DNA of 64,000 bases from sequence record MW250785; one strand, written 5' to 3'. The notes beneath the pieces were generated by a model. It ran no database searches. It was not told the origin of the DNA and worked only from the letters and a program-made list of their open reading frames with translations. This DNA is from Escherichia phage UPEC03. This document shows positions 2,325-61,468 of the stretch, piece by piece. A program made the translations under genes and the position numbers. Position 1 is the stretch's first letter, and the number at the start of each line of letters is the position of its first letter.

Positions 2325-3188
2325 ATGTTCTATAGCGTAGATGAATTTTTGTCAGGAATGGCAAATAGAGACTTTCAGCGAAGCAACCTGTTTAGTGTTG
2401 TATTCGCAACCAGTCCTGCATCACGCATTCTCGACAGCACGATCGGGAGTATCCGCGATACTTTAATAGATGGTACTATGAGTTCCATTAACGCGAATAA
2501 CCCGAACGAGTTCATGAACGCTATTACAGGGGGCGTAAGCAAGCTATTCAGCTATACAGTTGATAAAGCTATTATGTCCCTGAACAAAACAGGTTTCAGT
2601 AAAATCATGGGGGCGTTAAGCCCTCGTTTAATTACTTCCCTGTTTGGTGATAGTGTTTACGGACAGATGCTAACAGAATTCCGTGACAAAATGATGTATA
2701 ATATGGGGTTGAGCATCGTTGGTGTTCAGTTGCCTGGCAAAACGCTGGGTTATGAATACGTGTATAATGGCGGTGTACCCCAGATCCGATTCACCCGACC
2801 GGAGAATGGAGAATTATCACTAACGTTCCGTGTGGATTCAGAAGCGCGTAACCTGAAAGTATTCAACGAATGGTTATCGGCTATTCGCGATGATATTACA
2901 GGCCAGTTCGCATTCATTGATGAAGTATCAAGCGCGATCCAGGTAAACTTACACAATCGCGATGGTGTCCCGCACAGCACGTATGTATTCCAGAAGTGTT
3001 TGCCTGTTAAAGTCAGCAACCCAGAACTGAGTTATGAAAGCAATAACGAAATCTGGACATTCACTGTTGACTTTGCATATAAAACAGGCTGGCTTGTCGA
3101 AGCAGATAAAGAAGGTTGGGACGGATTCAAACAATCACTTATCGAAGGGGCAGCAATTGCCGTTCGTGGTGTGGTTACAGGACAATAA
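2325..3188 (+). CDS. 54: Baseplate tail tube initiator (T4 gp54-like)
   Basis: 287 aa, tightly coupled downstream of gp48-like gene; assignment by synteny and size only. Confidence 0.5.
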   Translation: MFYSVDEFLSGMANRDFQRSNLFSVVFATSPASRILDSTIGSIRDTLIDGTMSSINANNPNEFMNAITGGVSKLFSYTVDKAIMSLNKTGFSKIMGALSPRLITSLFGDSVYGQMLTEFRDKMMYNMGLSIVGVQLPGKTLGYEYVYNGGVPQIRFTRPENGELSLTFRVDSEARNLKVFNEWLSAIRDDITGQFAFIDEVSSAIQVNLHNRDGVPHSTYVFQKCLPVKVSNPELSYESNNEIWTFTVDFAYKTGWLVEADKEGWDGFKQSLIEGAAIAVRGVVTGQ

Positions 3189-3206
3189 GGGGCGAAAGCC
3201 CCTTTT
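3187..3206 (+). terminator. GC-rich hairpin with GAAA loop and short T-run, directly followed by SD GAGG
   Basis: AAGGGGC-GAAA-GCCCCTTTT; the identical ~25-nt element recurs at 61439-61463 upstream of gp13. Confidence 0.4.
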
Positions 3207-3215
3207 GAGGTTAAA

Positions 3216-6383: not shown

Positions 6384-6857
6384 TTAGCCGTCATAACCAC
6401 CACCGCAACGAACATCACCTTCAATGAACAGTTCGCGGTTATCTCTCAGGAGATTGTATTTCTTTTCGAGTTCCGGCCCGAATGCGTCCGCGTCGTCATA
6501 CCAGTCATAGTTATAACTTCCGGTTTCCTCGTCGTATTCCGGTTCGTCGCCGCACTCATTGAAGTGAACGATTTTAACATCATCCAGATTCAGTTCTTTC
6601 AGCTTGTCCCAGATGCGGGTTATTTCGACGCTATTACATCCGAACGCTTCCAGTGTGATTGTACCGTCATCATGTACTTGAGGAACACCCCAGCGCGGAC
6701 GATGATGAATTTCGGTGATCATATCCATCAGCGATTCAACGTTTGACTCACCGTAAATCTTTGCAACTTCCTGTTCTTTACCAGGGCGGACAAGTCCTAT
6801 CCCGATAATGAAACTACTGCTTGAGCTATTGCTCACGAACCCAGAACGGATCTTCAT
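6384..6857 (-). CDS. Hypothetical protein, conserved-N-terminus family (MKIRSGFVSNSSSSSFI...), acidic/aromatic C-terminus
   Basis: N-terminal 17 aa identical to ORF 10292-10804 with only synonymous codon differences; C-terminus D/E/Y/W-rich. Confidence 0.55.
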   Translation of the reverse strand: MKIRSGFVSNSSSSSFIIGIGLVRPGKEQEVAKIYGESNVESLMDMITEIHHRPRWGVPQVHDDGTITLEAFGCNSVEITRIWDKLKELNLDDVKIVHFNECGDEPEYDEETGSYNYDWYDDADAFGPELEKKYNLLRDNRELFIEGDVRCGGGYDG

Positions 6858-7045
6858 CGCCTTGCCTCGTATTTCGCGTTATCTGCGATTTTCTCATGAT
6901 ACAGGTTGTATGACAACACCAGCGGGATACAAGCTACTATAAGCCCGATGATAGCCAGTTGATATTCGCGTTTATCGAACGCCATGAATGTAATCGTAGC
7001 GCCCAGAATAAACACACCTAACGCAATGATGAAGAATAATGTCAT
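6854..7045 (-). CDS. Small membrane protein (two predicted TM helices)
   Basis: 63 aa, two hydrophobic stretches; 4-nt overlaps with both neighbours. Confidence 0.45.
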   Translation of the reverse strand: MTLFFIIALGVFILGATITFMAFDKREYQLAIIGLIVACIPLVLSYNLYHEKIADNAKYEARR

Positions 7046-7668
7046 TTTGGCAGGGTATCCATTTCACGAGATTTTGCTTTCAGGATGTCAATCACAGTAG
7101 TCATCGCCTGTTCTACATCACCATCATAGTGAACCAGGAATGTTTTGTGAAGTCCCATGATCAGACGATTGATGATATAAGCCATTTCTGACGGTAACAG
7201 TTTACCATTCTGGCGATCGTACTTTCCAAACAAGCGGTAGAGTTCTGCGCTGTTGCCTGGCTTCTCAATGCTGAAATTATGCATCCCAGACAGAATACCA
7301 TCCAGATACAGAACAGTTTTGTTATCACTACGCAGGTGTCCGCCGACCTTGTAGTAGTTGCTGAATACATACGGTTTTTCGCGGATATCTTCGATATCGA
7401 AATCACCATGATCTTCGATGTTGCCAACATGGGCGAAGAAATGATGATCTTCCAGTTCGAGAAGGATTGCACCCTTTTTGTATGGGAATCCGACTAAATC
7501 GATCTGCCAGCCATTTTCACCGACAAAGACATCATCGACAACCACGAAATCCGGCAGCATAGGCGCGTATGCGTGGTTCTTTTCGTTGTTTTCACGATAG
7601 GCTTGTGGTTCGGACAGATACAGGATATCGCCTTTTACAACTTCACCCCAGAATACGTTACGTGACAT
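7042..7668 (-). CDS. Hypothetical protein (208 aa)
   Basis: ATG at 7668 preceded by GAGGA; the listed start at 7707 lies within the upstream terminator hairpin. Confidence 0.5.
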   Translation of the reverse strand: MSRNVFWGEVVKGDILYLSEPQAYRENNEKNHAYAPMLPDFVVVDDVFVGENGWQIDLVGFPYKKGAILLELEDHHFFAHVGNIEDHGDFDIEDIREKPYVFSNYYKVGGHLRSDNKTVLYLDGILSGMHNFSIEKPGNSAELYRLFGKYDRQNGKLLPSEMAYIINRLIMGLHKTFLVHYDGDVEQAMTTVIDILKAKSREMDTLPK

Positions 7669-7709
7669 ATTATTTTCCTCAATATGCCCCCTTTCGGGGG
7701 CGGTCATTG

Positions 7710-9956
7710 TTAGATTTTGACTTCTTTTTCTTCCAGGACGATTTCACATTCGAATGATGTGGTTTCCCAGACTTTCCAGAAATCGGATGGAATATTATCT
7801 TCTTTCGGAAGAATATCTTTTGCAGCGATAGAAACTTTGGTTTCTTCGAAGTCCAGATCCGCGAACCATGCATGGGCTACTACAACACCGTACATTACGC
7901 GACTTAAACGGGCATTCAGTTTACGGACTTCCTGAATCGTTGCCTTTGTCTGCTTATCAAGATACTCGACTACCTGATCTTTGTCAAGCGCATCCAGTTC
8001 AGATTTCACCTGATCGTAAGCCCACAGGATAATCAGGTCGCCGTTGTTCAGTTTCTTCTTACCTTCGTCACGTTTCGCGACGGTAGCCGCTACAGCAGGA
8101 AGGGAGGAAACACCCTTGACTTTCACGTTCAGTTCTTTCGACATGTAAACATCAGTCGATTCTGTGCGCTCAACCTTCGGAGAGAACCCGTAATCACGAA
8201 TATCCTGTTCAGACAGCCATTCACCCGCTGCATCACCAAAGCGCTGTTTCAGCCCTTCTGCGTTGCGCAGTCCGATCGCGTTGTCACGGAAGAACTTCAT
8301 AACCTTCTGACGGCCTTTCAGGATTTCCAGACGCACGTTATCAGTCACGAACTCTTTACCGCTTAACCCGCGAGTCATGCCACGGTTAACCAGAGGCAGA
8401 GAGGTAAAGTCTACCAGTACCGACATACGGTCATCACCGATTTTTTCCAGCGGCTTGATAGTCAGGCCAGAAGCGCGAAGGTTTTTCAGTGTCGGAATAT
8501 CAGTTTCCAGCGGCAGAACTTTCACGTTCACGATACCATCTTTAACGATGGTGAAGTTACGCACCTGCTTAGTTTCGATTTTTTCCGGCAGACCGAATTC
8601 TTTCTGTTTGCTTTCTGGGATAGTCACATACCCTTCCAGATCCGTGTTGATGGAAATGTTAGGACGGGAACTGTTACCCACCAGATGTTTAACCGATACT
8701 TTGGTTGTGGTCTGGGTAAATTTCGGTGTCCAGACTTCATGCGCTACCATTTGCGCCGCCAGTGCTTTACGTTCTTCTGGGATTGCAGCGTTTGCGATCT
8801 GTTCGGTCAGTTGATCCAGTGTATCATCTTCTTTCTGTACAGTCTGACGGCCTGTGCGGTTATACGCCCAGTGCTCAGAAGACAGGTCGATCACTGTGTC
8901 AGTTTGTGCCAGCAGTTCGAGCGCATCAACCAGAGTGAACGCGTTTTCGTCTGGAACCATGTTGTAATCAATACCATCAACGAAACGCTGTGATGGATCT
9001 ACAACAGCCTGTGCAATCAGGTCTTTCGCGTTGGAGTAGTCCTGTTTGGTAAAGCAGTTGTCATACGCCTTGATCAGACGGACATCACCCAGCTTTTGAA
9101 GCACTTTCCATGCCAGATCAGGGTTCATTGTGTGCAGTGCATGATAAAGCACGACATACAGAACTTGCTGTTCGCTGGCGATGTTCGGATCGAATCCGTC
9201 AACATCATTAATCGCGTTTTCACCCAGCGCCCAGATGTTTTTGATGTGTTCTGGAACTAGCACAACACCGTTTGCAGCGTTCAGGACATACACGCACCCT
9301 TCGTCCAGGTAGATCGCATGGGTAGCATCAGCAACTTTGACTTCGATACGCGCGGAAGTCTGCGCGGTGATGATTTCGTTAAATGCTGGTTCGTATGCGT
9401 CGAAACCTTCAACGAATTTGTGCAATGCGTTGGTTGCTTCTGCCATTTTTTCCAGCAGAGGACGGTTTACATAATAACCGTATTCCAGGAACGCGATACT
9501 GTTGAAAGTCAGTGGCAGAACCGCACACGCTTTCAGAATATCATCGGTACGCCAGCAGTTATCATAACCATCAGTCAGGAAGATCAGGCTGTTCAGGTTG
9601 CCGTTTTCAGATTGCAGATCGGTAGCGATTTCCGCAGCCAGATTCAACGGCTCAACAAAGCCAGTACAACCCGTAGGTTTCAGGTAACGGTCGATAGCCG
9701 CGCAGATGTTAGACAGGTCAGAGACATTGCTAACCTTCTCACCACGGAACACCGTGCCGTAATCGCCTTTGCTGGAGAAGTACAGGATCGAAACGGTGTC
9801 ATCCTGTTTAACCAGACTCGCCAGATTTGCTTTCAGGTGTTTACGGATCTTAGGCAGTTCGTTGTACATTGAACCGGATACGTCACACACGAAAACGTGG
9901 TTTGTCGGGGTTGGCTTCGATACAGCGTTTTTGAATTCGATATTTGTGATTGACAT
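7710..9956 (-). CDS. von Willebrand factor A (vWA) domain protein, 748 aa (CobT-like?)
   Basis: N-terminal MIDAS-like motif VFVCDVSGSM (DxSxS) and downstream FLTDGYDN; ATG start; followed by GC hairpin at about 7685-7705. Confidence 0.7.
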   Translation of the reverse strand: MSITNIEFKNAVSKPTPTNHVFVCDVSGSMYNELPKIRKHLKANLASLVKQDDTVSILYFSSKGDYGTVFRGEKVSNVSDLSNICAAIDRYLKPTGCTGFVEPLNLAAEIATDLQSENGNLNSLIFLTDGYDNCWRTDDILKACAVLPLTFNSIAFLEYGYYVNRPLLEKMAEATNALHKFVEGFDAYEPAFNEIITAQTSARIEVKVADATHAIYLDEGCVYVLNAANGVVLVPEHIKNIWALGENAINDVDGFDPNIASEQQVLYVVLYHALHTMNPDLAWKVLQKLGDVRLIKAYDNCFTKQDYSNAKDLIAQAVVDPSQRFVDGIDYNMVPDENAFTLVDALELLAQTDTVIDLSSEHWAYNRTGRQTVQKEDDTLDQLTEQIANAAIPEERKALAAQMVAHEVWTPKFTQTTTKVSVKHLVGNSSRPNISINTDLEGYVTIPESKQKEFGLPEKIETKQVRNFTIVKDGIVNVKVLPLETDIPTLKNLRASGLTIKPLEKIGDDRMSVLVDFTSLPLVNRGMTRGLSGKEFVTDNVRLEILKGRQKVMKFFRDNAIGLRNAEGLKQRFGDAAGEWLSEQDIRDYGFSPKVERTESTDVYMSKELNVKVKGVSSLPAVAATVAKRDEGKKKLNNGDLIILWAYDQVKSELDALDKDQVVEYLDKQTKATIQEVRKLNARLSRVMYGVVVAHAWFADLDFEETKVSIAAKDILPKEDNIPSDFWKVWETTSFECEIVLEEKEVKI

Positions 9957-10292
9957 TTAAATTTTCTCGTATTTGAATTTTTCTAAAATTTCGTTAACTT
10001 TATTGCTTACTGCTTCGACTGTACGATCACACCCGAACTTACGCGCCAGGAGTTCAACGTATTCATCCATCGTAGTGAGTTTGGATTCTGCAACGTCAAA
10101 CGCAAGCGCATACATTACTGGATTCAATACTCGAACGATTTGGAGAGTATACTCGTTCAGTTCAAAACGTTCAAGATATTTTCGCAGAGAAAATACATCA
10201 AACGGTGCGGGGCGATCCTGGCTAAAGGGGATCGACTCCCCTAATGCATAGCGAGGCATAACAACACAGACTTCGGTTTTTAACTTATCCAT
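9957..10292 (-). CDS. Hypothetical protein (111 aa)
   Basis: ORF immediately upstream of the vWA gene, adjacent stop/start. Confidence 0.45.
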   Translation of the reverse strand: MDKLKTEVCVVMPRYALGESIPFSQDRPAPFDVFSLRKYLERFELNEYTLQIVRVLNPVMYALAFDVAESKLTTMDEYVELLARKFGCDRTVEAVSNKVNEILEKFKYEKI

Positions 10293-10804
10293 CAGTGATG
10301 ACTCTTTGATGTGTGTTCAAGGTTACGGAAGATGTTTCCATGTTCCAGTTGAGTTCCGATCGGGCCGCATTCATCGGAGTACGTGAATTCATAGATAAAC
10401 ACGCCGTCCTGATTGCCATACTTCGTGTTGTACTCTTCATACAACCACATTTTGATCAGAGCGTCTTTCTCTTCTGTGTCCAGATCGTACCAGTCTCGCC
10501 CGTCATACGCAAGCGCAATTTGAGGGTTTGAACGGTAGCGGGTTTCTGCGCTTTCTTCGGTTTCCCAGTCATAGCGTTTATCGTCGTAGAACGATTCAAA
10601 GCTATTACCCAGATGACCGCCTAAGTCACGGTGAACATGATTGACCACTTCTTCCGCTGTTAACGGAGGATTGTAGTAACCGCAGTTCGGAACGCAATCA
10701 CCCATCATTTCGCGCAGGTTGTCGATATTAGTCGGATCTTTCGGGAACCGGACGATGAAACTACTTGATGAACTGTTGCTCACAAAACCAGAACGGATTT
10801 TCAT
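10292..10804 (-). CDS. Hypothetical protein, conserved-N-terminus family (MKIRSGFVSNSSSSSFI...)
   Basis: Paralog of 6384-6857 in the first 17 aa; divergent acidic/aromatic C-terminus. Confidence 0.55.
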   Translation of the reverse strand: MKIRSGFVSNSSSSSFIVRFPKDPTNIDNLREMMGDCVPNCGYYNPPLTAEEVVNHVHRDLGGHLGNSFESFYDDKRYDWETEESAETRYRSNPQIALAYDGRDWYDLDTEEKDALIKMWLYEEYNTKYGNQDGVFIYEFTYSDECGPIGTQLEHGNIFRNLEHTSKSHH

Positions 10805-11034
10805 TTTACATCCTCAAATTGTAAGTTTTCTTTGGTTGCGTTCGCAATGGCTTTTTCGTTGCTCAGTGTTACTATGCGCAGACGTTCTCCAGTAAAGCCG
10901 TCGCATTCAGTGATACTTACCCAGTCAAAAGGTTTAGCCATTTCAATCGCACGTTCCAGCGATACGGTAGAACCGACCAAATCACTAAATGTATAGTAAT
11001 CTTCGCTTAAACTTTCAACAGTATAAATTTTCAC
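10801..11034 (-). CDS. Hypothetical protein (77 aa)
   Basis: Coupled small ORF (4-nt overlap). Confidence 0.4.
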   Translation of the reverse strand: MKIYTVESLSEDYYTFSDLVGSTVSLERAIEMAKPFDWVSITECDGFTGERLRIVTLSNEKAIANATKENLQFEDVK

Positions 11035-11273
11035 GATACTTTACCTTTTGTTTCAGATTTCAGGACGATGTTACTGTAAGGATCTTTTGCTACCAGTTCC
11101 CACAGGTCGCCAGGATGTTCCCCGCTACGGTAGACGGATGAACGGATGATTTCGTTAAACTTGCTCAGGGCTTCGTCTATGTCGTCATACCCGCATTTGA
11201 GAGGCTTACGGTTGCAACGAATGAAGAACATTTCGTTGGTATTCTCCCAGCGTTCGGCGTTTTTAACCTTCAT
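11031..11273 (-). CDS. Hypothetical protein (80 aa)
   Basis: Coupled small ORF. Confidence 0.4.
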   Translation of the reverse strand: MKVKNAERWENTNEMFFIRCNRKPLKCGYDDIDEALSKFNEIIRSSVYRSGEHPGDLWELVAKDPYSNIVLKSETKGKVS

Positions 11274-11542
11274 ACCGCCTCCATTTTACCAATGACTTCT
11301 TCGTATGTCACAGGGTTAGGTTCATAGCCGTTAGCGCCTATTGTATCGCCTACTCTGTTTCCTACTAAAGAAGCAACCGCAACTTTCTTGCCGTCTTTCC
11401 ACGCAGTGAAATGCAGATTATCCGCAACATACGGGAAGGTTTCGTGATTGTTCACCGCGTCGATGCAGTCCATAACGGTATCAGACGCGCAGATCAGATT
11501 ACCAGGTTCATAATCAACCAAACATTCAACAGTGTAAATCAT
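11270..11542 (-). CDS. Hypothetical protein (90 aa)
   Basis: ATG preceded by GAGGA and an upstream hairpin (11553-11575). Confidence 0.45.
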   Translation of the reverse strand: MIYTVECLVDYEPGNLICASDTVMDCIDAVNNHETFPYVADNLHFTAWKDGKKVAVASLVGNRVGDTIGANGYEPNPVTYEEVIGKMEAV

Positions 11543-11584
11543 AATAATTTCCTCACGAAAAAGCCCCTTTCGGGGCTTGATTAA

Positions 11585-11863
11585 TCAGTGTCCGAACACA
11601 CCACGAATAGACTCTGCGAACGCGTACAGTTCAGGGTTTTTCGCTTTCACTGTTTCGATTTGTTCCAGGATGTAATCTGGTTTGTATTTCGCACCGAACC
11701 AGCAGTAAGAGAAAGAACGATCCCACATGAACACGTTGTAGTATTCACCGTTACGCACTTCAACCATCACGTAACCTGGATTAGAACCCAGCGGGTAATC
11801 TTTCAGTAGATTAAATTTCGCACCAGCGCCAGTACATCCGTTAAACAGGTCATTAAAAGTCAT
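11585..11863 (-). CDS. Hypothetical protein (92 aa)
   Basis: ORF with ATG start. Confidence 0.45.
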   Translation of the reverse strand: MTFNDLFNGCTGAGAKFNLLKDYPLGSNPGYVMVEVRNGEYYNVFMWDRSFSYCWFGAKYKPDYILEQIETVKAKNPELYAFAESIRGVFGH

Positions 11864-11916
11864 GGTATGTTCCTTTTCAGTTTCGTTTCGGTAAAGCTAA
11901 TGTATCACTATCCTGG

Positions 11917-12453
11917 TCAGTATGCAATGTTTAATTTTGCAAATTTACCAAAATGTTTTATCGCTTCCCGATCGTATGCTTTTGCAGCCTCGTATTCGTC
12001 ACGATAGGAACCGATATGTTTAACCTTGCCGTCAATCTTTATCTGTGCAATGTAACGTATTCCAGTAGGTTGATCACGTACACATACACCCTTGAATCGA
12101 CTGGTTGCTACTCTTCGTTTAGTCCGGTTCTGACAGTTTCGGGATTGATCCGCTTCACGCAAGTTATCAATCCCGTCGCCAGCCTCAACACCATTTTTAT
12201 GATCAATCACATCAGGCAGTTTTCCGGTTGCAACGTAGTAGATGATTCGATGACGTAGATATCCTTTGCTTTTGAAATAAACGCGGGTATATCCTCCTTT
12301 AATCTTCGAACCTACTTCCTTTCCGATCAAGTCAGAACGTTTGTGTGACGTTCGTATAATTGTCCCCGTTTGTATATCAACAGAAACAGTTTTAAGGAAT
12401 TCGTCAATTCCTTTCTGTTCTTCTTCGATTGTTCTTAGTCCGTTGTGTGACAT
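11917..12453 (-). CDS. HNH endonuclease with C-terminal AP2-like DNA-binding domain (homing-endonuclease-like)
   Basis: HNH-type motif ...VIDHKNGVEAGDGIDNLREA...; AP2-like FKGVCVRDQPTGIRYIAQIKIDGKVKHIGSYRDEYEAAKAYD; paralog at 26069-26593; overlaps Dcm stop by 19 nt. Confidence 0.75.
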   Translation of the reverse strand: MSHNGLRTIEEEQKGIDEFLKTVSVDIQTGTIIRTSHKRSDLIGKEVGSKIKGGYTRVYFKSKGYLRHRIIYYVATGKLPDVIDHKNGVEAGDGIDNLREADQSRNCQNRTKRRVATSRFKGVCVRDQPTGIRYIAQIKIDGKVKHIGSYRDEYEAAKAYDREAIKHFGKFAKLNIAY

Positions 12454-13358
12454 AACACCTTCTTGATTTGTTTTGCTATAGCCTCGATTACTGGTATTGA
12501 AACAGAATTACCTGCTTGTTTATACGCTTGCATCTTGCTTTTGTTGATAATAAACGAATCTGGGAAACCCTGCAAACGAAAACACTCACGGGGAGTAAGT
12601 CTTCGGGGGTTCTTTCCTTCCTGCAATACCAGACATTGAACACCATCTTTATAGTAATTTGCAGTGATAGTCCCAGTGTGCGTAGAATCGCTTGTGACGG
12701 CCTGATAACCGAAACCCTTACCGTTTGCCTTATTTCGTTCCTTACGCTCTCTAAAGCCCTTCCATGCGTTATCTGACAGGGTGAACGAATCATCAGCATC
12801 TTCGAGGATGTCGCCTACGCGTGTAGGGGTACGCGGGGGAACCGGAAACGAAAAGAATACATCATCCAGGAAGCAGACAATAAACACGCGTTCCCGTCTT
12901 TGGGGTAGTCCGAAATCCTTTGTGTTCAGGCGTTGATAGAATACGTTATATCCTTCGGCCTCCAGAAGCCCGTAAATCGTTTTAAACGTCTTCCCCTTGT
13001 CATGGGTTAGCAGTTCAGGCACGTTCTCAAAGAACAACACACGGGGCTTTTTAGCGCGTATAATGCGGAGGATTTCGAAGAACACCGTACCGCGTACATC
13101 ATCAAAGCCCAGTTTCAATCCGGCTTTACTGAACGCCTGACACGGGAACCCCGCGAGCAGGATATCATGATCAGGTACTTTGTTTTCATCAATGGCGAAT
13201 AGATCACCCTGTAGGTTATCATCGCCCCAGTTTTCGATATATGTTTGCTGTGCGAACTTGTCGATTTCAGACGTTAAAAGGCATTCGACACCGCCGAACG
13301 CCTTATCAAATCCTAATCGAACCCCGCCCACACCAGCGCAGAGGTCAATTATTTTCAT
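12435..13358 (-). CDS. DNA (cytosine-5)-methyltransferase, Dcm-type
   Basis: Motif I DLCAGVGG, motif IV GFPCQAFS, ENV motif FFENVPEL; 307 aa. Confidence 0.85.
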   Translation of the reverse strand: MKIIDLCAGVGGVRLGFDKAFGGVECLLTSEIDKFAQQTYIENWGDDNLQGDLFAIDENKVPDHDILLAGFPCQAFSKAGLKLGFDDVRGTVFFEILRIIRAKKPRVLFFENVPELLTHDKGKTFKTIYGLLEAEGYNVFYQRLNTKDFGLPQRRERVFIVCFLDDVFFSFPVPPRTPTRVGDILEDADDSFTLSDNAWKGFRERKERNKANGKGFGYQAVTSDSTHTGTITANYYKDGVQCLVLQEGKNPRRLTPRECFRLQGFPDSFIINKSKMQAYKQAGNSVSIPVIEAIAKQIKKVLCHTTD

Positions 13359-13624
13359 ACGTCAAAATCAATCTCGTCGATTTTGTATGAGTTTTCGTCA
13401 ATGTCCGCCCATAGGGTTACATTAACGTGTTTGCTATCTTCGTACAACTGGCGACCATCAATCCCGCCCGTGTAATTGCTTTCGGTACGTTCAGTAACTT
13501 CCAGTCGGAGGCTATCGCGCATGATCTGAACAACAGCCTGTTCCAGTGTAACTGCGTCTGGGTTTTTGGTATCGCCCAGTACAACATCTTTAACGTTCAA
13601 AATAATATCAGTCATTAGTGCCAC
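13355..13624 (-). CDS. Hypothetical protein (89 aa)
   Basis: Coupled ORF between nucleotidyltransferase and Dcm genes. Confidence 0.4.
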   Translation of the reverse strand: MALMTDIILNVKDVVLGDTKNPDAVTLEQAVVQIMRDSLRLEVTERTESNYTGGIDGRQLYEDSKHVNVTLWADIDENSYKIDEIDFDV

Positions 13625-13857
13625 TCCGTTTTAATACCATGTCGGTATGCGTCAATCCCCAGCGGGGTAATCAGCAACCATGCTTTCGAATTATCGTGAT
13701 AGCCCGTTACCCTTCGAGCGTAACCTTTTTGAATCAGGGCATCACGCCCTGATTTGCTGGGTACGTCATCGAAATCTAAGTCTAGCACCTTAGTTGCATA
13801 TCCGTAAAGTTTATACAGAACATCAATTTCAGCGCCGGACAATTTAGGATACATCAT
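13615..13857 (-). CDS. Hypothetical protein (80 aa)
   Basis: Coupled ORF, overlaps both neighbours by a few nt. Confidence 0.4.
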   Translation of the reverse strand: MMYPKLSGAEIDVLYKLYGYATKVLDLDFDDVPSKSGRDALIQKGYARRVTGYHDNSKAWLLITPLGIDAYRHGIKTEWH

Positions 13858-14855
13858 TTGTAATACCCCACAACATGATCGCGGTATACGCGTTCGATGA
13901 AATCGTTCCAGAATTCGCGGTCAACTTCTTTCGGATATGTTGAAATCGCTGCAAGCCGTTCGACTTCGCCCATGACTTCTTCCAGCTTTTCCTGTACGGT
14001 TGCGAACGGTACGCCGCCAGCTTTAACCAGTTTCAGGAATGCGCTATCAGGCAGAGGATAAACGATATCACCATCTTTGTAAATCTGGATCAACTGCATA
14101 CCACCGCGCAACGCGTGACTTAAAGCCTTCCAGTCGATGCCGTTGTTGGCTTCTGCTTGTCGTGCGCGTTCTCCGTATTCATCCCAGAGTTTGTACACTG
14201 ACTTACGCATTTCATCGGCTTTGATCGTGAACTGGAATTTACGCCCCAGCACTTCATAGAAGTCCTGACAACCAGATTTCATTGTCGTGTCGGTAACGAA
14301 TCGGCAGAACTCGTTTGTAGGGAAACGATTCTTGATGTCAGACACTTTCACTTCACGCGTATAGCGTTTCATATCTGGTGTGAATTCCTGAATACCACCG
14401 ATCGTTTCGGTTTCTTTCAGTACATCGACAACTTCGCGCAGTGCAGCCAGTCGGGAACCTTTCACACCATATTTTGCGGCTTGCTTGCGAACATAACCGA
14501 ACAGGCCAGTTAGTTCAGTGGTGTAAAAACGCCAGCGGTTAGCGCGGATATACTGCCAGATTTCAGAGTTAGCGATCAGCTTGTCATCCGAAGCGTGAAG
14601 CATATCGAGCGCTACGGTATCACCATCACACGCAAGGCTGATAAACTTAGTCAGACTATACAACTGACGATCAACGTCGTCTACGGTGTTTTTAGAGCTT
14701 TTATCGCCCGTGCTGGTGTCGATAGACTTCTTCGCAGTGCCTAACAGGATTTCGCGAGGATGAGGGAGATAGATCCCTTTGTAGTCTTTATCGCTTGTTG
14801 GTGTTTCCAGTCCGTAAAGATGGGATCCAAAAATCATTTCAGTAATCATTTTCAT
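13854..14855 (-). CDS. Pol-beta superfamily nucleotidyltransferase-domain protein, function unknown
   Basis: N-terminal GSHLYGLETPTSDKDYKGIY matches the G[GS]x9-13Dx[DE] NTase signature; ATG at 14855 (listed 14870 start is TTG) overlaps HNH stop as TAATG. Confidence 0.6.
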   Translation of the reverse strand: MKMITEMIFGSHLYGLETPTSDKDYKGIYLPHPREILLGTAKKSIDTSTGDKSSKNTVDDVDRQLYSLTKFISLACDGDTVALDMLHASDDKLIANSEIWQYIRANRWRFYTTELTGLFGYVRKQAAKYGVKGSRLAALREVVDVLKETETIGGIQEFTPDMKRYTREVKVSDIKNRFPTNEFCRFVTDTTMKSGCQDFYEVLGRKFQFTIKADEMRKSVYKLWDEYGERARQAEANNGIDWKALSHALRGGMQLIQIYKDGDIVYPLPDSAFLKLVKAGGVPFATVQEKLEEVMGEVERLAAISTYPKEVDREFWNDFIERVYRDHVVGYYK

Positions 14856-15613
14856 TATACAAATCTCCAATAAAACCCTTTATGAGTTTTTCTTTTACCG
14901 TTACAGCATGAACTTACATGCCCTTTGTTATACCCCATTTCAACGGCTTCCACAATACCACCATTTAAAATAGTTTCTCTTTCTGTTTTGATACATTTCA
15001 TAATCAAAGGTTTTATCAATTCCGTCTTCTTTTGTGAAATATTAGCTAATGCAATTACATTTCTGATATCAGATTCACTCATTAAATCAGAAATCTTCTT
15101 TCTTAACCATACATAGCCTTGACTTTTGGCAAGTTTGCCGGAGCAACATTCATGAATATGACTAGGGTTAAATCCACGCAATTTCATTTCTTGCCGACCG
15201 CCTAATATGATAATCTCGTCTCCTGTTTCAAGGTTGAATCCGACAACTGGAATTATTTGCCGTTCCGACATTTTCTTTCTCGCTTCTTTCGTGAATATTG
15301 TAAGAGATTTTAATTTTCTCGCGTCGCTCATTTGCGAAGATGTCGTTTTGTATTTCTTAGTATTATGAGACATACGGAAAAAAGCATATCTCATTTTATC
15401 ACCAGCATACTTAGCAAGTAGATGATGAGCAAGATAATGCTCTTTATATGTTAAATATACTAAATTTTCGGGTTCATCAGTACCACCTAATGACTTAGCA
15501 ACGATATGGTGTATATCATAACCGCGCTTTCTATACTTTTTCGAGTAACCTTTAGGTATATCTCTTCTTTTTGCCAATGTAATTAGTTGGTCGTAAATAC
15601 GCTTATAGTTCAT
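14855..15613 (-). CDS. HNH homing endonuclease-like protein
   Basis: GYDIHHIVAKSLGGTDEPENLVYLTYKEHYLAHH HNH motif; ATG at 15613 with AAAGGAGAG SD (listed start is GTG). Confidence 0.75.
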   Translation of the reverse strand: MNYKRIYDQLITLAKRRDIPKGYSKKYRKRGYDIHHIVAKSLGGTDEPENLVYLTYKEHYLAHHLLAKYAGDKMRYAFFRMSHNTKKYKTTSSQMSDARKLKSLTIFTKEARKKMSERQIIPVVGFNLETGDEIIILGGRQEMKLRGFNPSHIHECCSGKLAKSQGYVWLRKKISDLMSESDIRNVIALANISQKKTELIKPLIMKCIKTERETILNGGIVEAVEMGYNKGHVSSCCNGKRKTHKGFYWRFV

Positions 15614-15743
15614 ACACTCTCCTTTAGGCGTATTTATCACTTAAAATCCGAACACGGTTTCCATAATCATTTTCATCAGAATTCAACCTTTAATGTTTTT
15701 GCGATCCCGCGCAATTCCGCGGTAGTAATAACAGGGATCATAA

Positions 15744-16291: not shown

Positions 16292-17348
16292 TCAGAGTCC
16301 CGTGAAAGCTACAACGATTTGATAGTGGTCATCGAAGAATTCCCCTTGTCGTTGTACGACCTCATGTAAGGGCATCCAGAACGCCTCTAACGCATCGTCA
16401 GAACCGCCCATAATGCGGGGCAGACTACCATCATTGTTAGGCTCTAACTTGATGTACTGCGCCACAGTCGGTTTTGAGAAGTGTACGGAACGCTTCGGAT
16501 GATCGAACAACATCGAATTGCGGATTGAACCACGGATAACCTTTTCAGGAACCTTGATCCGTACCTCTTCGAGCAGTTCGCGGATCGCACAATCCAGGAA
16601 CGTTTCATTTGCGTTTTTGTGTCCGCCGGGAAGGGCTAACGCGTCTTTACCTGGGGCGAACTTACGACGAATTACCAGCAGGTGATTGTTGCACACAACC
16701 ACACTATCACCCGTGCAACAGTTTAGCGCGTCGGGGTATGGGTAGTTTTTGAATTTCTCCAATTCGCTTTCCCATTTCTCGTATTCGTAGAATAAACGCC
16801 AGAACGTGTCTTCCATCATCCATTTGTCGATATAATCAACGGTTGCTTGAGGAACAAAGCGCAACAGTTTCTTATCCCACCCGTTTTTATGGTTAAAGAT
16901 AATCGGACGCAGATCGGTTGCTGATAGATCCTTGCCGTTAATCTGGACAGGTGGAACTGGTACGTGTGTCCATCCGAACGCTTTAAGCCAGTATGAACCT
17001 GCATCTTTTTCGTAACCGTAGATAGCGATTTTGTCGCCTTTGGTTTCCCTGATAGCAGTACGAACAGAGGTTTTCCATTTCTCTTCGTTGTAAAGATAAT
17101 CTGGAATGTGCTCAAACTGAACACGAACAACATCTTCGATCGGGAAGTTAGCGTTTAACCATGAGAAGATCATGGTTTGACGCTCACGCGCCGTCAGCGG
17201 GTTTAAAACGTTAGGGTAAGCATATGCTGAACCCAGAAGGATGTAAACGATCTTTGCTTCTCCGAGTGCTTTACGCACCATTGCTGCATGACCATTATGG
17301 AAGGGTTGGAATCTGCCAATTACGACAGCTTTATCAAATTGTTTCATA
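16292..17348 (-). CDS. natV: Bifunctional NMN adenylyltransferase / Nudix hydrolase (NatV-like)
   Basis: N-terminal cytidylyltransferase motif GRFQPFHNGH; C-terminal Nudix box GGHKNANETFLDCAIRELLEEV; ATG at 17348 with GGAG SD (listed start is GTG). Confidence 0.8.
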
Positions 17349-17520
17349 ACGTGCTCCACGTTTAAAGGTTAATCATAAAACAGACGCAATCACCAATACA
17401 CCAAGAAAACCGCCAATAAAGCCGAAGAATAGCGAAATGAAGATAGTAAGGATGATCTGTTTTATGTTCATTGTAGTATTCTCGTTCGGAGAAAGCCCCC
17501 GCTCTGGGGGCTTTAAACCC

Positions 17521-18447
17521 TTATTTACGAGAATCGAAAATCACTTTACCAGCGTAATCAGAACCCATGACAGTTTGAGGTACACCGCCCTGATATTTTT
17601 CCGCGATGGTCTGCTGAACATCAAGTTCTTTCCAGCGAATCATTTCTGGTGTAATGGTACGCTGCAACACGGCGTTCGCTTCGGCTTCTTTCTTAGCCGC
17701 ATACAGACGGGCATCAGCATCACGCTCGTTAGCCTGTGCAGCATTGCTACGGGCTTCTTTATCGGCAATTGCCTGAACAACTGCCTGTTGAGCGATTTGC
17801 TCTTTACGTGCCAGTTCTGCTTTCTCTGCGTTCACCTGTTCTTCACGAATTTTCGTGTTTTCAACCTGCTTCTTGATCGCTTCCGGCAGGTCGATATCCT
17901 GCAAGAATACCTGTTTCACGGTGTAACCGTAAGGGCGGGCATACTCTTCAACTTCCTGCTGGATCGCGATCTGTAGCTGGCTTTGAACTTCTGCATTATA
18001 CAGATCCTGTGCTTTCGGTACAGATTTACCGAACTCACGGACAGTTGACAGAAGTTTTTCAGTCACATATTTATCCAGCGCCTGATCCTGACTACCCGCA
18101 TTGATACGGTTGATCGGGGCTTTGCTACCATCGAACTGTAACATCACGGTCATATCCACAGTGGATTTGAATTTATCCTGGGACGGAACCTGCAATTTGT
18201 CAAACTTCATTGCGATGTCTTTGGTGTTGAACACCTCGAAATCAGCCAGTGGATTTACCAGGTGGAAACCAGGCAGAACAGGCTTCGGTGAAACTTTACC
18301 CATGAAGGTTTGAGTTTTTACCGTACCATCCTGAACGATAGTGTACGAGTTCGGAACCAGCCACAGAGCGGCGATTACGCCCAGAGCGATCAGTGTGGTT
18401 TTCTTCGGGTTGTTTACGATAGTGTTTAAGTTCATCATTATTTCCAT
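17521..18447 (-). CDS. SPFH / Band 7 (prohibitin, HflC/K-like) membrane protein
   Basis: N-terminal TM segment LIALGVIAALWLV, SPFH-like core, A/E/K/Q-rich coiled-coil C-terminus. Confidence 0.7.
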   Translation of the reverse strand: MEIMMNLNTIVNNPKKTTLIALGVIAALWLVPNSYTIVQDGTVKTQTFMGKVSPKPVLPGFHLVNPLADFEVFNTKDIAMKFDKLQVPSQDKFKSTVDMTVMLQFDGSKAPINRINAGSQDQALDKYVTEKLLSTVREFGKSVPKAQDLYNAEVQSQLQIAIQQEVEEYARPYGYTVKQVFLQDIDLPEAIKKQVENTKIREEQVNAEKAELARKEQIAQQAVVQAIADKEARSNAAQANERDADARLYAAKKEAEANAVLQRTITPEMIRWKELDVQQTIAEKYQGGVPQTVMGSDYAGKVIFDSRK

Positions 18448-19236: not shown

Positions 19237-19244
19237 TATTTATA
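19237..19244 (-). promoter_or_regulatory. Candidate T4-type late promoter (TATAAATA on minus strand)
   Basis: Exact TATAAATA about 50 nt upstream of the rI-like ATG, just downstream of a terminator. Confidence 0.35.
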
Positions 19245-24712: not shown

Positions 24713-26059
24713 TTAAAAGTTCTCTTCGACGAATGCAGCCAGTCGCCCACGATATACGGTATCCAGGATCACATGACTTGAATGACCGTACTCTTTAAGT
24801 TTTTCAACCGCATACACAAAGCCGTTGTTAACAGCAGTGTTGCGCGGGTTGTCAATCTGTTTAATGTTCCCGCATAGTATCAGAAGGGTGTTCTCACCGC
24901 AACGGGAAATGATGGATTTGATTTCGTGATTGCTCAAGTTTTGACATTCATCAACAATCAGAACCGAACCTTTACCCGGATCAGGATGCCCGATTGAGCG
25001 CCCACGGAAGTAATACAGGCTAGGGAACTGGACAACGTTTTTCTCCAGCAGCCCTTCTACGTATTTGTCAACTTCCGGTTGATCCTTAAACAGAATGTTC
25101 AGGCTCGTAATACATGGTTCTACAGCAGGACGCAGTTTTTCGCCAAGAGTACCAGGTAAGAACCCGATTTCGCCCGACAGAGGGCTATCTGCCTTGACAT
25201 ACATCAGGTTTGCGAAGTGTCCCGCGTTTACCATGTGCATTGCACCAGCAACAGCCAGCATGGTTTTACCTGAACCCGCCGCGCCCATGATGGTCACAAC
25301 GTCATTGTTTTTGTCCAGAATAGCATCAACGAATGACGCTTGCAGAGCATCGCGAGGCTGAATTGTTTTCATCAGCTTACGCTTTAACGCCTGTTCGTGC
25401 TTAATAGGCAACACTTCAAGCTGAAACTCTCCAGCATTCACCACACGCCCTACAATCTCACCACACGATAGAATGTATTGGTTAGGGTAGAAATCCGCGT
25501 CAGGAAGCGATGAATACGTTATAACGGCAACAGGCCCGACATACTCCAGGACTTCAACAGTTTCCCAGAACAGAGGCAGGTCGATATAACCTGAATACAA
25601 CACATCACTATCTTTCAGCGAGTCATCGCCAGTGTATTGAAGAACCGAACAACCTTTAGACATCGCGATCAACAGCATGTTAATGTCACGAGTCACCAGA
25701 GTTGCGCCCTGCTGAATACAAGTTGCAATGATCCGCGCATCCTGTTTATCCAGAGGGAATTCTTCGGTGCCGTCATAATCGACGATTTTCAGTGTTACGC
25801 TTTCCGGTACTGCTGGGTTCGATAAGTTTAACGAAACCCCTGTTTGGGTAATTGCTTCATAATTTTGTCCCAGGATTGCTTTGGACAAAAGCCGGATCGC
25901 CAGTCGTGCTTCATGAGCGGTTCGCTCTTTGCTTTTCAGGTGATCCAGTTCTTCCATCGTTGCAGCGGTGATAATGATTTCGCTGTCAGGTTCGATGTAA
26001 GAATAGATTGAATATGGGTTACTAATCAAAACATTGGTGTCTAATACGTATTTTGACAT
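24713..26059 (-). CDS. phoH: PhoH-like ATPase with N-terminal PIN domain
   Basis: N-terminal YVLDTNVLI (PIN-like); Walker A GAAGSGKT; Walker B LIVDEC. Confidence 0.8.
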   Translation of the reverse strand: MSKYVLDTNVLISNPYSIYSYIEPDSEIIITAATMEELDHLKSKERTAHEARLAIRLLSKAILGQNYEAITQTGVSLNLSNPAVPESVTLKIVDYDGTEEFPLDKQDARIIATCIQQGATLVTRDINMLLIAMSKGCSVLQYTGDDSLKDSDVLYSGYIDLPLFWETVEVLEYVGPVAVITYSSLPDADFYPNQYILSCGEIVGRVVNAGEFQLEVLPIKHEQALKRKLMKTIQPRDALQASFVDAILDKNNDVVTIMGAAGSGKTMLAVAGAMHMVNAGHFANLMYVKADSPLSGEIGFLPGTLGEKLRPAVEPCITSLNILFKDQPEVDKYVEGLLEKNVVQFPSLYYFRGRSIGHPDPGKGSVLIVDECQNLSNHEIKSIISRCGENTLLILCGNIKQIDNPRNTAVNNGFVYAVEKLKEYGHSSHVILDTVYRGRLAAFVEENF

Positions 26060-26068
26060 ACATTAACC

Positions 26069-26593
26069 TTATGTGGTTTCGTTAAAAAATGTGCCGAAAA
26101 CCTCTTTCGCTTTCCGGTCATAAACGGCTTTTGCTTCTTCTGGAGTGGTATAATACCCCAAAAATTTTCTTTTTCCATCTATGTTTATCTGCGCTTTATA
26201 CTTCCCATTTGCTTTGTGATAAGAAACACCTTTCAACCCCGTACTGCTGTTTGAATTACATTTCTTTTTCATCGCGTTTTGTTGGTTCGTCGCTTTCTGT
26301 AGATTTCTTGCTGTATCTCCATTTTCAACACCATACACATGATCTACGATAGGAGGAAGATAACCATTCTCAACGTAAAACACTATTCGGTGTCGCAAAT
26401 ACATAGAACCTTTAAAATGAATTTGGGAATACTCGTTCTTGCTTCCGGCTTCACTTCCAGGAGACATAGGGCCGCGCTGAATTTTCCAATACACTTTTCC
26501 CGTAGATGTATCAACATCTACATAACTCAGAAGAGACTCAATCCCTTGAATCTCTTCCTGTATGGTTCTTGATGAATAACCATGACTTTTCAT
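26069..26593 (-). CDS. HNH endonuclease with AP2-like domain (paralog of 11917-12453)
   Basis: MKSHGYSSRTIQEEIQGIESLL... parallels the other HNH-AP2 protein; AP2-like LKGVSYHKANGKYKAQINIDGKRKFLGYY; ATG at 26593 overlaps upstream stop by 1 nt. Confidence 0.7.
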   Translation of the reverse strand: MKSHGYSSRTIQEEIQGIESLLSYVDVDTSTGKVYWKIQRGPMSPGSEAGSKNEYSQIHFKGSMYLRHRIVFYVENGYLPPIVDHVYGVENGDTARNLQKATNQQNAMKKKCNSNSSTGLKGVSYHKANGKYKAQINIDGKRKFLGYYTTPEEAKAVYDRKAKEVFGTFFNETT

Positions 26594-27063
26594 TACATAC
26601 CCAAACGGATAATATGGATATATGGGAACGGGTGAAGATGACTTGAACGCATACACAAGGTCAGTGTTTTTGCCAGTTCAAACCGTTCGTCGATCGTCAT
26701 GTCGCATTCATCGAAAATCAGGTTGATTGCCTGATACTTGATCGTTTGTCCACGGAAAATGGTATTCAGATCTTGACGTTTCGACAGAATGAAAGACGAA
26801 TCAGCGCCCTTATCCATTCCATGTTCTGCCGCAGCACAAATACCCATTTGCTTTGTCGGCGCAACGTAGATATTCAGTGTCCCTTTCGACTGCTTGATGA
26901 TATCGAAAGCCGCTTTGGTTTTACCCGACATCCGGCCCATATCCAGCGCAGTTTCGAAAATAGACACACCGCCGCATTCTTGCCCCCAACGCCCATCAAT
27001 GATTCGCGCAAGGTGCAGGTTACGTGACTGCTTTACAGCGTCAACATAGAATTGTGAAATCAT
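26593..27063 (-). CDS. Hypothetical P-loop-like protein (156 aa)
   Basis: Deviant Walker A-like GRMSGKT and Walker B-like LIFDECD; directly upstream of the HNH gene. Confidence 0.4.
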   Translation of the reverse strand: MISQFYVDAVKQSRNLHLARIIDGRWGQECGGVSIFETALDMGRMSGKTKAAFDIIKQSKGTLNIYVAPTKQMGICAAAEHGMDKGADSSFILSKRQDLNTIFRGQTIKYQAINLIFDECDMTIDERFELAKTLTLCMRSSHLHPFPYIHIIRLGM

Positions 27064-30084: not shown

Positions 30085-30377
30085 CAGAATGTGATCTCCG
30101 CAAACTGCATTCTACGCTCAATCGCATGGATAGCGTTATCACGCTGTTCTTTGTTTTCATATCCAGCCCAGGTAATCGGAGTTGAACAGATCAGGTGAAA
30201 AGTGATTGCTGGGTGTCTCTTCCCTTCAACAACGATTGTTGCATCATCTTCGATCCAGGTTACGTGATCCAGATTCACCGGATAGTTTCTTACGGTAACA
30301 GTTTCACCAACCATAGGCGACACGTCCAGAATATCACGATCACGAACGTATGATTTAATACGAGATACGATTAACAT
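30084..30377 (-). CDS. Hypothetical protein (97 aa)
   Basis: 1-nt overlap with the upstream large gene. Confidence 0.45.
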   Translation of the reverse strand: MLIVSRIKSYVRDRDILDVSPMVGETVTVRNYPVNLDHVTWIEDDATIVVEGKRHPAITFHLICSTPITWAGYENKEQRDNAIHAIERRMQFAEITF

Positions 30378-38830: not shown

Positions 38831-39454
38831 TCACCCATTATGTTTGAAGTATTCGATCTGACGCAGACGTTTTTCTGCTGCCTCTTTCGAATCATATTCA
38901 CCAAGTTCTTTCGTGCGATCATGGTTCAGCACAACCCACTTATCGCCGCGATGTTCGATGTGCTCCGTGATGTCTTCAACTTTCTTATCAAGATCCAGCG
39001 GTTCAGCATCTTCCTCGATAATAGTCAAATCTACGGGCAGTGTCAACAGTCTTTTAACTCCGCTGATATCTTCGATGCGGGAATCATATGCGAGCGTTAC
39101 GTGTGGTTTGTAATCGTCATAATCGTATGTTGCTCCAGCATCCATTGCATCTTTGAAGCGGCTATGGAGATAATCAGATTCCAGAACGCCCACGATCGTA
39201 TTACCGTATTTCGTTTCCCACTTCTCCACGTCAACCAGTCGGGCAGGTTCAGAGATACCGGAGGCAGGGAACAGATCAACCGTCTTACGGCTATACACAA
39301 TCGTTGTATGCAGTTTTGCAGCGGAAACAGGATTCTCTACACCCAGAAGTTTTTGCACCTTCGCGAGCGCTTCACAGGAAGCCTGATCGAACTTCGCACA
39401 CATATAGATCCCCGGATCAACTACGGGTTTCGCTACTTCAATAAAACTTTTCAT
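38831..39454 (-). CDS. 2H phosphoesterase-like protein, candidate Acb1 (anti-CBASS) homolog with C-terminal extension
   Basis: Two H-x-T motifs (LHTTIVYS, PHVTLAYD) typical of the 2H/LigT fold; next to gp57A-like and gp1 genes, as 57B is next to gene 1 in T4. Confidence 0.5.
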   Translation of the reverse strand: MKSFIEVAKPVVDPGIYMCAKFDQASCEALAKVQKLLGVENPVSAAKLHTTIVYSRKTVDLFPASGISEPARLVDVEKWETKYGNTIVGVLESDYLHSRFKDAMDAGATYDYDDYKPHVTLAYDSRIEDISGVKRLLTLPVDLTIIEEDAEPLDLDKKVEDITEHIEHRGDKWVVLNHDRTKELGEYDSKEAAEKRLRQIEYFKHNG

Positions 39455-61439: not shown

Positions 61440-61459
61440 AAGGGGCGAAAGCCCCTTTT
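61440..61459 (+). terminator. GC-rich GAAA-loop hairpin with T-run, followed by SD (repeat of element at 3187-3206)
   Basis: AAGGGGC-GAAA-GCCCCTTTTGAGG identical to 3187-3210. Confidence 0.4.
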
Positions 61460-61468
61460 GAGGATCAT

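Follow-up and report, generated by a model that had tools for sequence, protein, structure and literature searches.

A vWA-domain protein of Escherichia phage UPEC03 with a predicted ArnB/Sec23-24-like core, a family-specific C-terminal module and no recognisable AAA+ partner

Escherichia phage UPEC03 (sequence record MW250785) was analysed over a stretch of 64,000 nucleotides, referred to below as the window. One gene on its minus strand encodes a 748-residue protein in which an N-terminal vWA domain with a complete MIDAS (an adhesion site dependent on a metal ion) is followed by a long C-terminal part, the last ~400 residues of which have no relative outside the family, either by sequence (Pfam, NCBIfam, PDB) or by structure (PDB, BFVD). 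Judging from a predicted structure, the core of the protein appears to belong to the structural class of ArnB, Sec23/24 and YfbK. The original prediction for this DNA had seen no AAA+ partner in the window, and indeed none of the open reading frames (ORFs) found there encodes a MoxR/CobS-type ATPase. We tentatively suggest, as a reading that falls somewhat short of probable, that the protein is a soluble, cytoplasmic vWA adaptor or clamp that works without an ATPase on one conserved target.

The vWA domain and the predicted structure

The ORF at 7710-9956 is uninterrupted (coordinates of all features are collected in Table 1), and its computed product is acidic, with a mass of 83.7 kDa and a pI of 5.1; the start codon is backed by alignment, as homologues open at the same Met. 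The original prediction had this ORF and its 748 residues right, and had left the strand unstated. Three Pfam models (VWA_3, VWA_2 and VWA) match residues 21-176, each barely over its gathering cut-off, and the best sequence-level matches of the domain are to TIGR03788 (E 4e-6) and ITIH1 (E 1.3e-5). The MIDAS motif that had been read from the sequence (DVSGSM...TDG) is present and conserved, as D25-V-S27-G-S29-M30, T98 and T128-D129-G130: residues D25, S27, S29, T98 and D129 vary little or not at all among 50 diverse homologues, and are 98-100% conserved in a set of 251. The fold and the complete DxSxS...T...D signature together make the protein a member of the vWA superfamily. With the ORF, the Pfam matches, the conserved MIDAS and the remaining ~550 residues that match nothing, the observation from which this work started is thus confirmed.

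An AlphaFold2 model built from a 50-sequence alignment (mean predicted local distance difference test score, pLDDT, 89.2; predicted template modelling score, pTM, 0.80) folds the entire chain into one compact body, and shows at a pLDDT of ~90 the vWA fold on which the original prediction depended. Foldseek comparison of the model with the PDB returned vWA-containing proteins only, the best matches being ITIH1, ArnB and the ArnAB complex (an "archaeal ortholog of the Sec23/24 core motif"), the Catenulispora protein 4fx5, ArnE, ANTXR2, alpha2-delta and Sec24; the E-value to ITIH1 and ArnB was 1e-11, and TMt to isolated vWA domains, such as that of ANTXR2/CMG2, was 0.74-0.80. ITIH1 (E 1.3e-5) and ArnB (E 1.4e-4) were also the top two when a family profile was run against the PDB sequences, matching over query residues 9-230.

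In the class described for ArnB, the vWA domain splits an eight-stranded beta-sandwich and a helical bundle comes after it, and the same arrangement is found in 4fx5, E. coli YfbK, Sec23/24 and the WAV3 ligases (PMC12852372). The phage model likewise has a beta-sandwich joined to, and apparently split by, its vWA domain, as in an ArnB/Sec23-24/YfbK-type core. By analogy with ArnB, the short strand at residues 3-7 would belong to the sandwich that the vWA domain interrupts, and the helical domain that follows may be the positional counterpart of the ArnB/Sec23-24 helical domain. The nearest structural relatives (ArnB, 4fx5, ITIH1 and Sec23/24) are ATPase-independent, and for proteins of this class the premise of the original prediction, that a vWA protein usually works with a MoxR/CobS ATPase, does not hold. 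This corrects an annotation habit: a vWA domain alone does not imply a MoxR/CobS partner.

The C-terminal region is as uncharacterised as the original prediction had stated. Residues ~200-748 gave no match in Pfam, NCBIfam, PADLOC or the PDB sequences, and profile searches with the C-terminal part found no relative beyond the family: the PDB (by single sequence and by profile), Pfam on 50 members and NCBIfam returned vWA hits or noise only. Against BFVD, Foldseek gave four clusters only, each a family member or a fragment of one. Within residues 353-748 the polar residues Y365, R431, N433, S435, R466, D473, N524, K551, D602, Y604 and S617 are near-invariant.

A family spread among large myoviruses

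Positions 7000-11000 of the window are 98-99% identical to Enterobacter phages EC-W1 and EBPL and to Cronobacter phages leB, leE and leN; these relatives belong to Pseudotevenvirus (Straboviridae), the genus that comprises the T4-like phages of the RB43 group, and the window too comes from an RB43-type phage. Their records label the gene "hypothetical protein". Dozens of deposited genomes carry near-identical copies, and the gene itself is not new. The hidden Markov model (HMM) of PHROG 2426 ("unknown function") matches residues 1-748 with E = 0 and 1123.6 bits over profile positions 1-736 of 736, and the window copy shows no difference of substance from the members of this family. A comparison of five T4-like genomes in 2006 had already counted the orthologues RB43ORF119c and Aeh1ORF154c among its "novel ORFs" and noted their weak match to vWA (PMC1524935). 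The orthologues RB43ORF119c, LIMEstone1 ORF108 and CBA120 orf143 align over the full length, with length, MIDAS and C-terminal module common to all; identity to the window protein is 89% in RB16/Lw1, 48-51% in Ackermannviridae (48.6% for LIMEstone1 ORF108) and ~23% in Rhizobium phages.

A word-indexed search gave 269 homologues, nearly all of 700-780 residues and aligning end to end, from T4-likes, Ackermannviridae, Vibrio phage VmeM-32, Shewanella phage Thanatos and metagenomic phage contigs; the "bacterial" entries among them lie on phage-sized contigs of ~150 kb. An exhaustive HMM search with the C-terminal profile extended this to 1,343 clusters at 50% identity, 892 of them at E <= 1e-30. 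In the best 150 of the 1,343 clusters, complete proteins have 680-820 residues and the module starts at about residue 190-260 in all. We looked at two matches that consist of the C-terminal module only (short hits of 480-611 residues); each starts where its contig does and is a truncation, and the idea of split versions was rejected. Because the complete proteins among these best matches are all fused and the short matches examined are truncated, the vWA part and the C-terminal module behave as an obligatorily fused unit. By tblastn, 503 of 50,697 phage records contain the gene, and the carriers include RB43/KP15-type T4-likes, nearly all listed Ackermannviridae, Rhizobium and Bacillus myoviruses and many metagenomic contigs of 300-450 kb. 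Among the matches listed, the complete carrier genomes are all 140-190 kb, and the annotations read "hypothetical" or "vWA-containing", with "minor tail protein" in two records. The PADLOC defence library gave no match for the vWA protein, and a literature search on phage vWA anti-defence proteins found nothing relevant.

The gene is thus an ordinary member of a long-catalogued family that has been flagged as vWA since 2006; what is added here is its structural class, the constant fusion to a C-terminal module with no detectable relative, the absence of an ATPase partner and the link to virion proteomics. The family is very widespread and its MIDAS is fully conserved, yet there is no study on its function. 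Many of the carriers are candidates for phage therapy or biocontrol (against Klebsiella, Salmonella, Dickeya and Cronobacter), and for this reason a conserved 84-kDa protein that may travel in the virion is worth resolving.

Proposed role and its alternatives

We suggest that the MIDAS site would hold a divalent cation, with an Asp or Glu carboxylate of the partner completing its coordination, and that the rigid C-terminal module, which like the family occurs in phages only, and there in large myoviruses, could provide a second binding or effector surface that holds or presents this partner. The protein would act as a stoichiometric clamp or adaptor rather than being passed to a MoxR/CobS motor as its substrate, and its target might be a component of the phage or a host protein that is conserved universally. 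A conserved target is suggested over a fast-evolving, host-specific one because full-length identity is still ~30% across the phages of such different hosts as Enterobacteria, Vibrio, Shewanella and Aeromonas. The 748 residues contain no signal peptide, transmembrane or hydrophobic segment. A stand-alone metal-dependent adaptor, one of the two options in the original prediction, fits all of our findings, from which we infer the adaptor role itself.

Synthesis of the protein probably precedes expression of the late genes. In this phage, those late genes that are known have the motif (C/A/T)TAAATA 20-50 nt upstream, a local motif derived from these genes because the literal T4 TATAAATA is at chance level in the window (the full, strict 8-mer occurs 3 times in 64 kb, and never before plus-strand structural genes). 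On the strand of the vWA gene, no late-promoter-like motif is found from the gene to 15.6 kb; the sole intergenic one on the minus strand (19237-19243) lies 9.3 kb upstream, two others at ~15.6 and ~18.1 kb fall inside ORFs, and an intrinsic terminator at ~11556-11574 stands between the vWA gene and these motifs. We also surveyed the neighbourhoods (+/-10 kb) of 82 loci from IMG/VR and reference phages, representing 31 lineages by vWA identity, and one lineage has a T4-type late-promoter motif in the 200 nt upstream of its vWA gene. A sigma-70 promoter scan gave nothing above chance, and no transcriptome data were found for a carrier phage. Going by its sequence, then, the vWA gene does not look like a late gene.

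Several points weigh against an intracellular adaptor. The C-terminal half has at least 14 polar residues that are near-invariant, and these resemble an active or ligand site more than a passive scaffold and leave room for a catalytic or ligand-binding function; the six peptides of the LIMEstone1 orthologue in virions, where contaminants gave one each, are not expected of a purely intracellular early protein; the timing of expression is read from motifs; and the search for structural relatives of the C-terminal module covered the PDB and BFVD, so that the module may have structural relatives in cells.

Because of the published virion proteomics of orthologues, we keep a virion-carried role as the main rival. 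The protein might be packaged with the DNA and ejected along with it as an effector of the first minute, like T4 Alt and the internal proteins, or serve as a low-copy accessory of tail or baseplate, with its MIDAS binding a host or virion partner. The record of LIMEstone1 marks ORF108 as a 'confirmed structural protein', and in purified virions it was detected by 6 unique peptides at 11.4% coverage, a level like that of gp54, gp14 and gp27 and well above the 1 peptide each of ligase, PhoH, gp44 and rIIB (Adriaenssens 2012, Table 2; PMC3296691). Other LIMEstone1 virion proteins confirmed by mass spectrometry are encoded 2-7 kb off in the same orientation. The Thanatos orthologue TH1_124 was likewise detected in a virion preparation, but the sample is contaminated, as was admitted, since its 104 proteins include ligase and lysis inhibitors (PMC7530303); the detection of gp185 in Sajous1 (Vi01-like) amounts to 1 peptide amid many non-structural proteins (PMC10892097). 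In the window, the baseplate cluster is 2.8 kb away from the vWA gene, and baseplate genes are its commonest neighbours, though in 5 of the 31 lineages only, the gene being placed mostly amid replication and nucleotide-metabolism genes. Also arguing against a place in the virion are the 30 lineages that have no late-promoter motif near the gene and the N-terminus, MSITNIEFK, in which we could see by inspection no T4-type capsid-targeting peptide with an (L/I)-x-E protease site; moreover, residues 3-7 are modelled as a structured strand. Taken together, we consider a virion-carried role somewhat unlikely.

A bolder view, which we offer as speculation and would not expect to hold in full, is that of a new ATPase-independent phage machine: an ArnB/Sec23-24-like vWA hub joined to a module of unseen fold with a conserved polar site, made early, partly carried in the virion, and directed at a target common to large myoviruses or their hosts. 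Such a machine may, for example, be an injected effector of the first minute, or an organiser of a replication or assembly compartment. If this were true, the family would rank with the largest of those protein families that are still uncharacterised in large myoviruses, and would form a functional class new to vWA proteins.

Alternatively, the C-terminal ~400-500 residues could be a new enzyme or ligand-binding domain that the vWA/MIDAS part only targets or regulates. The near-invariant polar residues D291, K304, Q305, Y365, R431, N433, S435, R466, D473, N524, K551, D602, Y604 and S617 are clustered in the C-terminal half; the module is confidently folded in the model, has no structural relative in the PDB or BFVD, and keeps its length and architecture across more than 1,300 clusters. 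All the same, we hold this to be unlikely.

The search for an AAA+ partner bears on the remaining alternatives. Neither the ten ORFs flanking the vWA gene (with domains of HNH endonucleases, Dcm methylase, RlaP-type nucleotidyltransferase, NadR/Nudix and SPFH) nor ten further ORFs of the window contain an AAA+ domain. The original prediction had envisaged a cobS or MoxR gene elsewhere in the genome; in the complete sister genome of Taquito (98% identical), covered by its annotation tables, a Walker-A/P-loop scan and Pfam on unassigned large ORFs, no CobS/MoxR gene is annotated and none was found. The P-loop proteins of Taquito are Dda, gp41, gp46, PNK, Tk, UvsW, a PhoH-PIN fusion and a zeta-toxin-like protein, and the only annotated AAA+ is the clamp loader gp44. 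In the neighbourhood survey, no gene family recurs in more than 5 of the 31 lineages. A CobS/CobT or MoxR partner, sought in the window, the sister genome and the 82 loci, was accordingly rejected, and a dedicated phage ATPase partner is very unlikely.

It could still be that the protein works with a host AAA+ motor (e.g. of RavA/MoxR type, or ClpX) or with a distantly encoded phage ClpX- or MoxR-like protein. Many prokaryotic vWA proteins are MoxR cofactors, and AAA+ genes do occur near the vWA gene: ClpX-like genes 2-6 kb downstream in 3 of the 31 lineages, all of jumbo phages, classical AAA genes upstream in 2, and a MoxR-like gene 6 kb upstream in 1 (locus L076); a clamp loader gene is a neighbour in 2. 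The ClpX-like, classical AAA and MoxR-like ATPases are nonetheless of three different types, each in no more than 3 lineages, and none of them is found in this phage. The distribution of phage MoxR-like proteins does not track the vWA family, since homologues of the L076 protein belong mainly to other phage groups, including genomes of ~72 kb, 135-150 kb and jumbo size, and none are seen in the RB43 or Ackermannviridae groups. As the closest structural class is ATPase-independent and no VWA_CoxE/ViaA-type model matches, we regard an AAA+ motor as improbable.

At three loci of two lineages (L041, where the genes span 6446-15260, L078 and L082; mostly jumbo contigs of 83-452 kb), the vWA gene is flanked by a classical AAA gene (~520 aa) 2-4 kb upstream and, 2-5 kb downstream, by a gene for a ClpX-like AAA+ protein (~410 aa) that has the ClpX zinc finger; L041 also has a CN-hydrolase gene in between. 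This arrangement could reflect shared synteny or a lineage-specific functional link.

Other neighbours were considered as partners and set aside. Genes for topoisomerase II, ClpX-like, classical AAA, acyl-carrier-protein-like and gp49/66-like proteins occur in 3-4 related lineages each, as synteny by descent. The SPFH/Band-7 gene is 4-8 kb from the vWA gene in the window, ISTP3 and VmeM-32, but is linked to it in only 4 of the 31 lineages, in variable order, and its phage distribution differs: SPFH genes are in 743 records, including T5-like phages (~105-124 kb), a group absent from the vWA matches. The SPFH/Band-7 protein of the window (17521-18447, minus) is 74-77% identical to an SPFH 'lipoprotein' of T5-like siphoviruses and 54% to that of Aeromonas T4-likes, which suggests a recent exchange between unrelated phage groups. 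In 19 loci of Ackermannviridae, a small gene for an acyl-carrier-protein-like product (PP-binding, a weak Pfam match) lies ~40 nt downstream of the vWA gene; in the window phage such a gene is not seen directly downstream.

Finally, a CobT/ChlD-like chelatase subunit with a CobS/ChlI partner elsewhere, the other option of the original prediction, can practically be dismissed: it would have the vWA/MIDAS domain in common with the phage protein and nothing more, and, although some T4-like cyanophages carry cobS, no AAA+ partner turned up in the window, Taquito or the neighbourhoods, the Pfam models CobT, CobT_C and VWA_CoxE gave no match at E <= 1 (query) or E <= 0.1 (50 members), CobT and ChlD carry their vWA domain C-terminally where that of the phage protein is N-terminal (Pfam, model), and the C-terminal module is unrelated to chelatase subunits.

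Gene surroundings and comparison with known systems

Table 1. Features of the vWA gene, its product and related loci. Positions are those of the window unless a locus of the survey is named.
Feature	Position	Strand	Basis or detail
Complete vWA-protein gene	7710..9956	minus	ATG 9956-9954, TAA 7712-7710; 748 aa; ORF without interruption
N-terminal beta-strand, aa 3-7, ahead of vWA domain	9936..9950	minus	DSSP of model
vWA domain, aa 18-197, Rossmann-like alpha/beta	9366..9905	minus	Pfam; AlphaFold secondary structure; Foldseek
MIDAS motif D25-V-S27-G-S29 (then M30)	9870..9884	minus	sequence and homologue alignments
MIDAS threonine T98	9663..9665	minus	invariant in homologue alignments
MIDAS aspartate D129 and G130 (LTDGYDN; T128-D129-G130)	9567..9572	minus	invariant in homologue alignments
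Predicted beta-sandwich domain, aa 198-247, ArnB/Sec23-24 type	9216..9365	minus	five strands (203-244)
Predicted helical domain, aa 248-352	8901..9215	minus	helices 248-350; conserved G290-D291, F302-x-K304-Q305; model and alignments
Phage-specific C-terminal module, aa 353-748	7713..8900	minus	alpha/beta region, long helical hairpin, terminal beta-sheet
GC-rich hairpin GCCCCC-GAAA-GGGGGC	7686..7701	minus	read from sequence; 8 nt past the vWA-gene stop
Further GNRA-hairpin sites	~3160-3215; ~61440-61468; 11556-11574	plus; plus; minus	also locus L007, upstream of neck and gp19 genes
Late-motif sites	upstream of 44137, 48571, 50562, 63157		also locus L007, upstream of gp18, gp19, gp20, gp22, gp24
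Acyl-carrier-protein-like gene	L092 (LIMEstone1) 10245-10568; L002 (ISTP3) 10261-10572		

Around the vWA gene, in the same minus-strand block, are small ORFs together with tk, nudix and NadR-type genes. The ATG of the vWA gene directly abuts the TAA of an upstream ORF of 111 aa, and the directly flanking ORFs fall in small PHROGs of unknown function. The hairpin beyond the stop codon of the vWA gene, probably an RNA-stabilising or partial terminator element, is followed by the Shine-Dalgarno (SD) sequence and ATG (7668) of the next gene. Hairpins of the type GGGGC-GAAA-GCCCC, with a GNRA tetraloop, mostly followed by TTTT and then by GAGG and an ATG, recur between many genes on both strands, and probably act as intercistronic cassettes that combine a terminator or stabiliser with an SD sequence.

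Some other minus-strand genes of the window deserve mention. A protein of 207 aa (38831-39454) strongly matches the anti-CBASS nuclease Acb1 (Pfam PF23474, E 3.8e-49), so that the minus-strand block of the vWA gene includes at least one gene of a known anti-defence type. Of the P-loop proteins of the window, a single one is unassigned (24713-26059, 448 aa): a fusion in which aa 4-142 form a PIN domain and aa 233-432 a PhoH-like P-loop ATPase with the Walker A sequence GAAGSGKT; it is not of AAA+/MoxR type. An RlaP nucleotidyltransferase of the 'RNA repair pathway DNA polymerase beta family' (13854-14870, 338 aa; Pfam E 1.5e-11; PHROG 388) adjoins a Dcm C5-cytosine methylase (12435-13358) and HNH endonucleases. 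HNH homing-endonuclease-like ORFs are found at 11917-12453 (HNH_3), 14855-15640 (HNH and NUMOD-like) and 26069-26656 (AP2 and HNH_3); since the corresponding ORFs of leB and Taquito differ in length, the window phage differs from its relatives mainly in mobile endonuclease content. There is also a radical-SAM/SPASM-domain protein (30377-31531, 384 aa), and a fusion of a NadR-like NMN adenylyltransferase with Nudix (16292-17359, 355 aa) which, together with a nicotinate phosphoribosyltransferase in the sister genome, indicates that the phage carries an NAD-salvage set.

Compared with known systems, the phage protein shares vWA and MIDAS with the MoxR-vWA pairs (RavA-ViaA, ATV p618/p892 and the jumbo-phage MoxR with its peptidase-vWA), with CobS-CobT and with ChlI-ChlD, and phage examples of such pairs exist; these are two-gene systems with the AAA+ gene adjacent, whereas the vWA protein described here has none adjacent, in the genome, or conserved across lineages. 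Packaged effectors of the type of T4 Alt and the internal proteins would be marked by a capsid-targeting peptide and late transcription, neither of which is evident for the phage vWA protein (by inspection and motif scan). Proteins of the ITIH1, alpha2-delta or sortase-target type bind ligands through their MIDAS without an ATPase, as we suggest for the phage protein, but ITIH1-type proteins are secreted or extracellular and have an upstream VIT domain, while the phage protein has neither signal peptide nor VIT and differs in its C-terminus.

ArnB, of the archaellum regulatory network of Sulfolobus, has 380 aa and ends in a phospho-regulated four-helix bundle that is bound by the FHA/zinc-finger protein ArnA (PMC12852372). 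No ArnA-like, FHA, zinc-finger or kinase domain was found in the flanking ORFs, the scan covering neighbours and large ORFs. With ArnB, ArnE and 4fx5 the phage protein shares 14-16% sequence identity, and it carries ~400 residues more than they do, in an unrelated fold. Sec23 and Sec24 of the COPII inner coat have the same order of vWA trunk, beta-barrel or sandwich and helical domain as the phage model, with Foldseek alignments of 445-506 columns, and the relationship of Sec23/24 to the ArnB class has itself been stated (PMC12852372).

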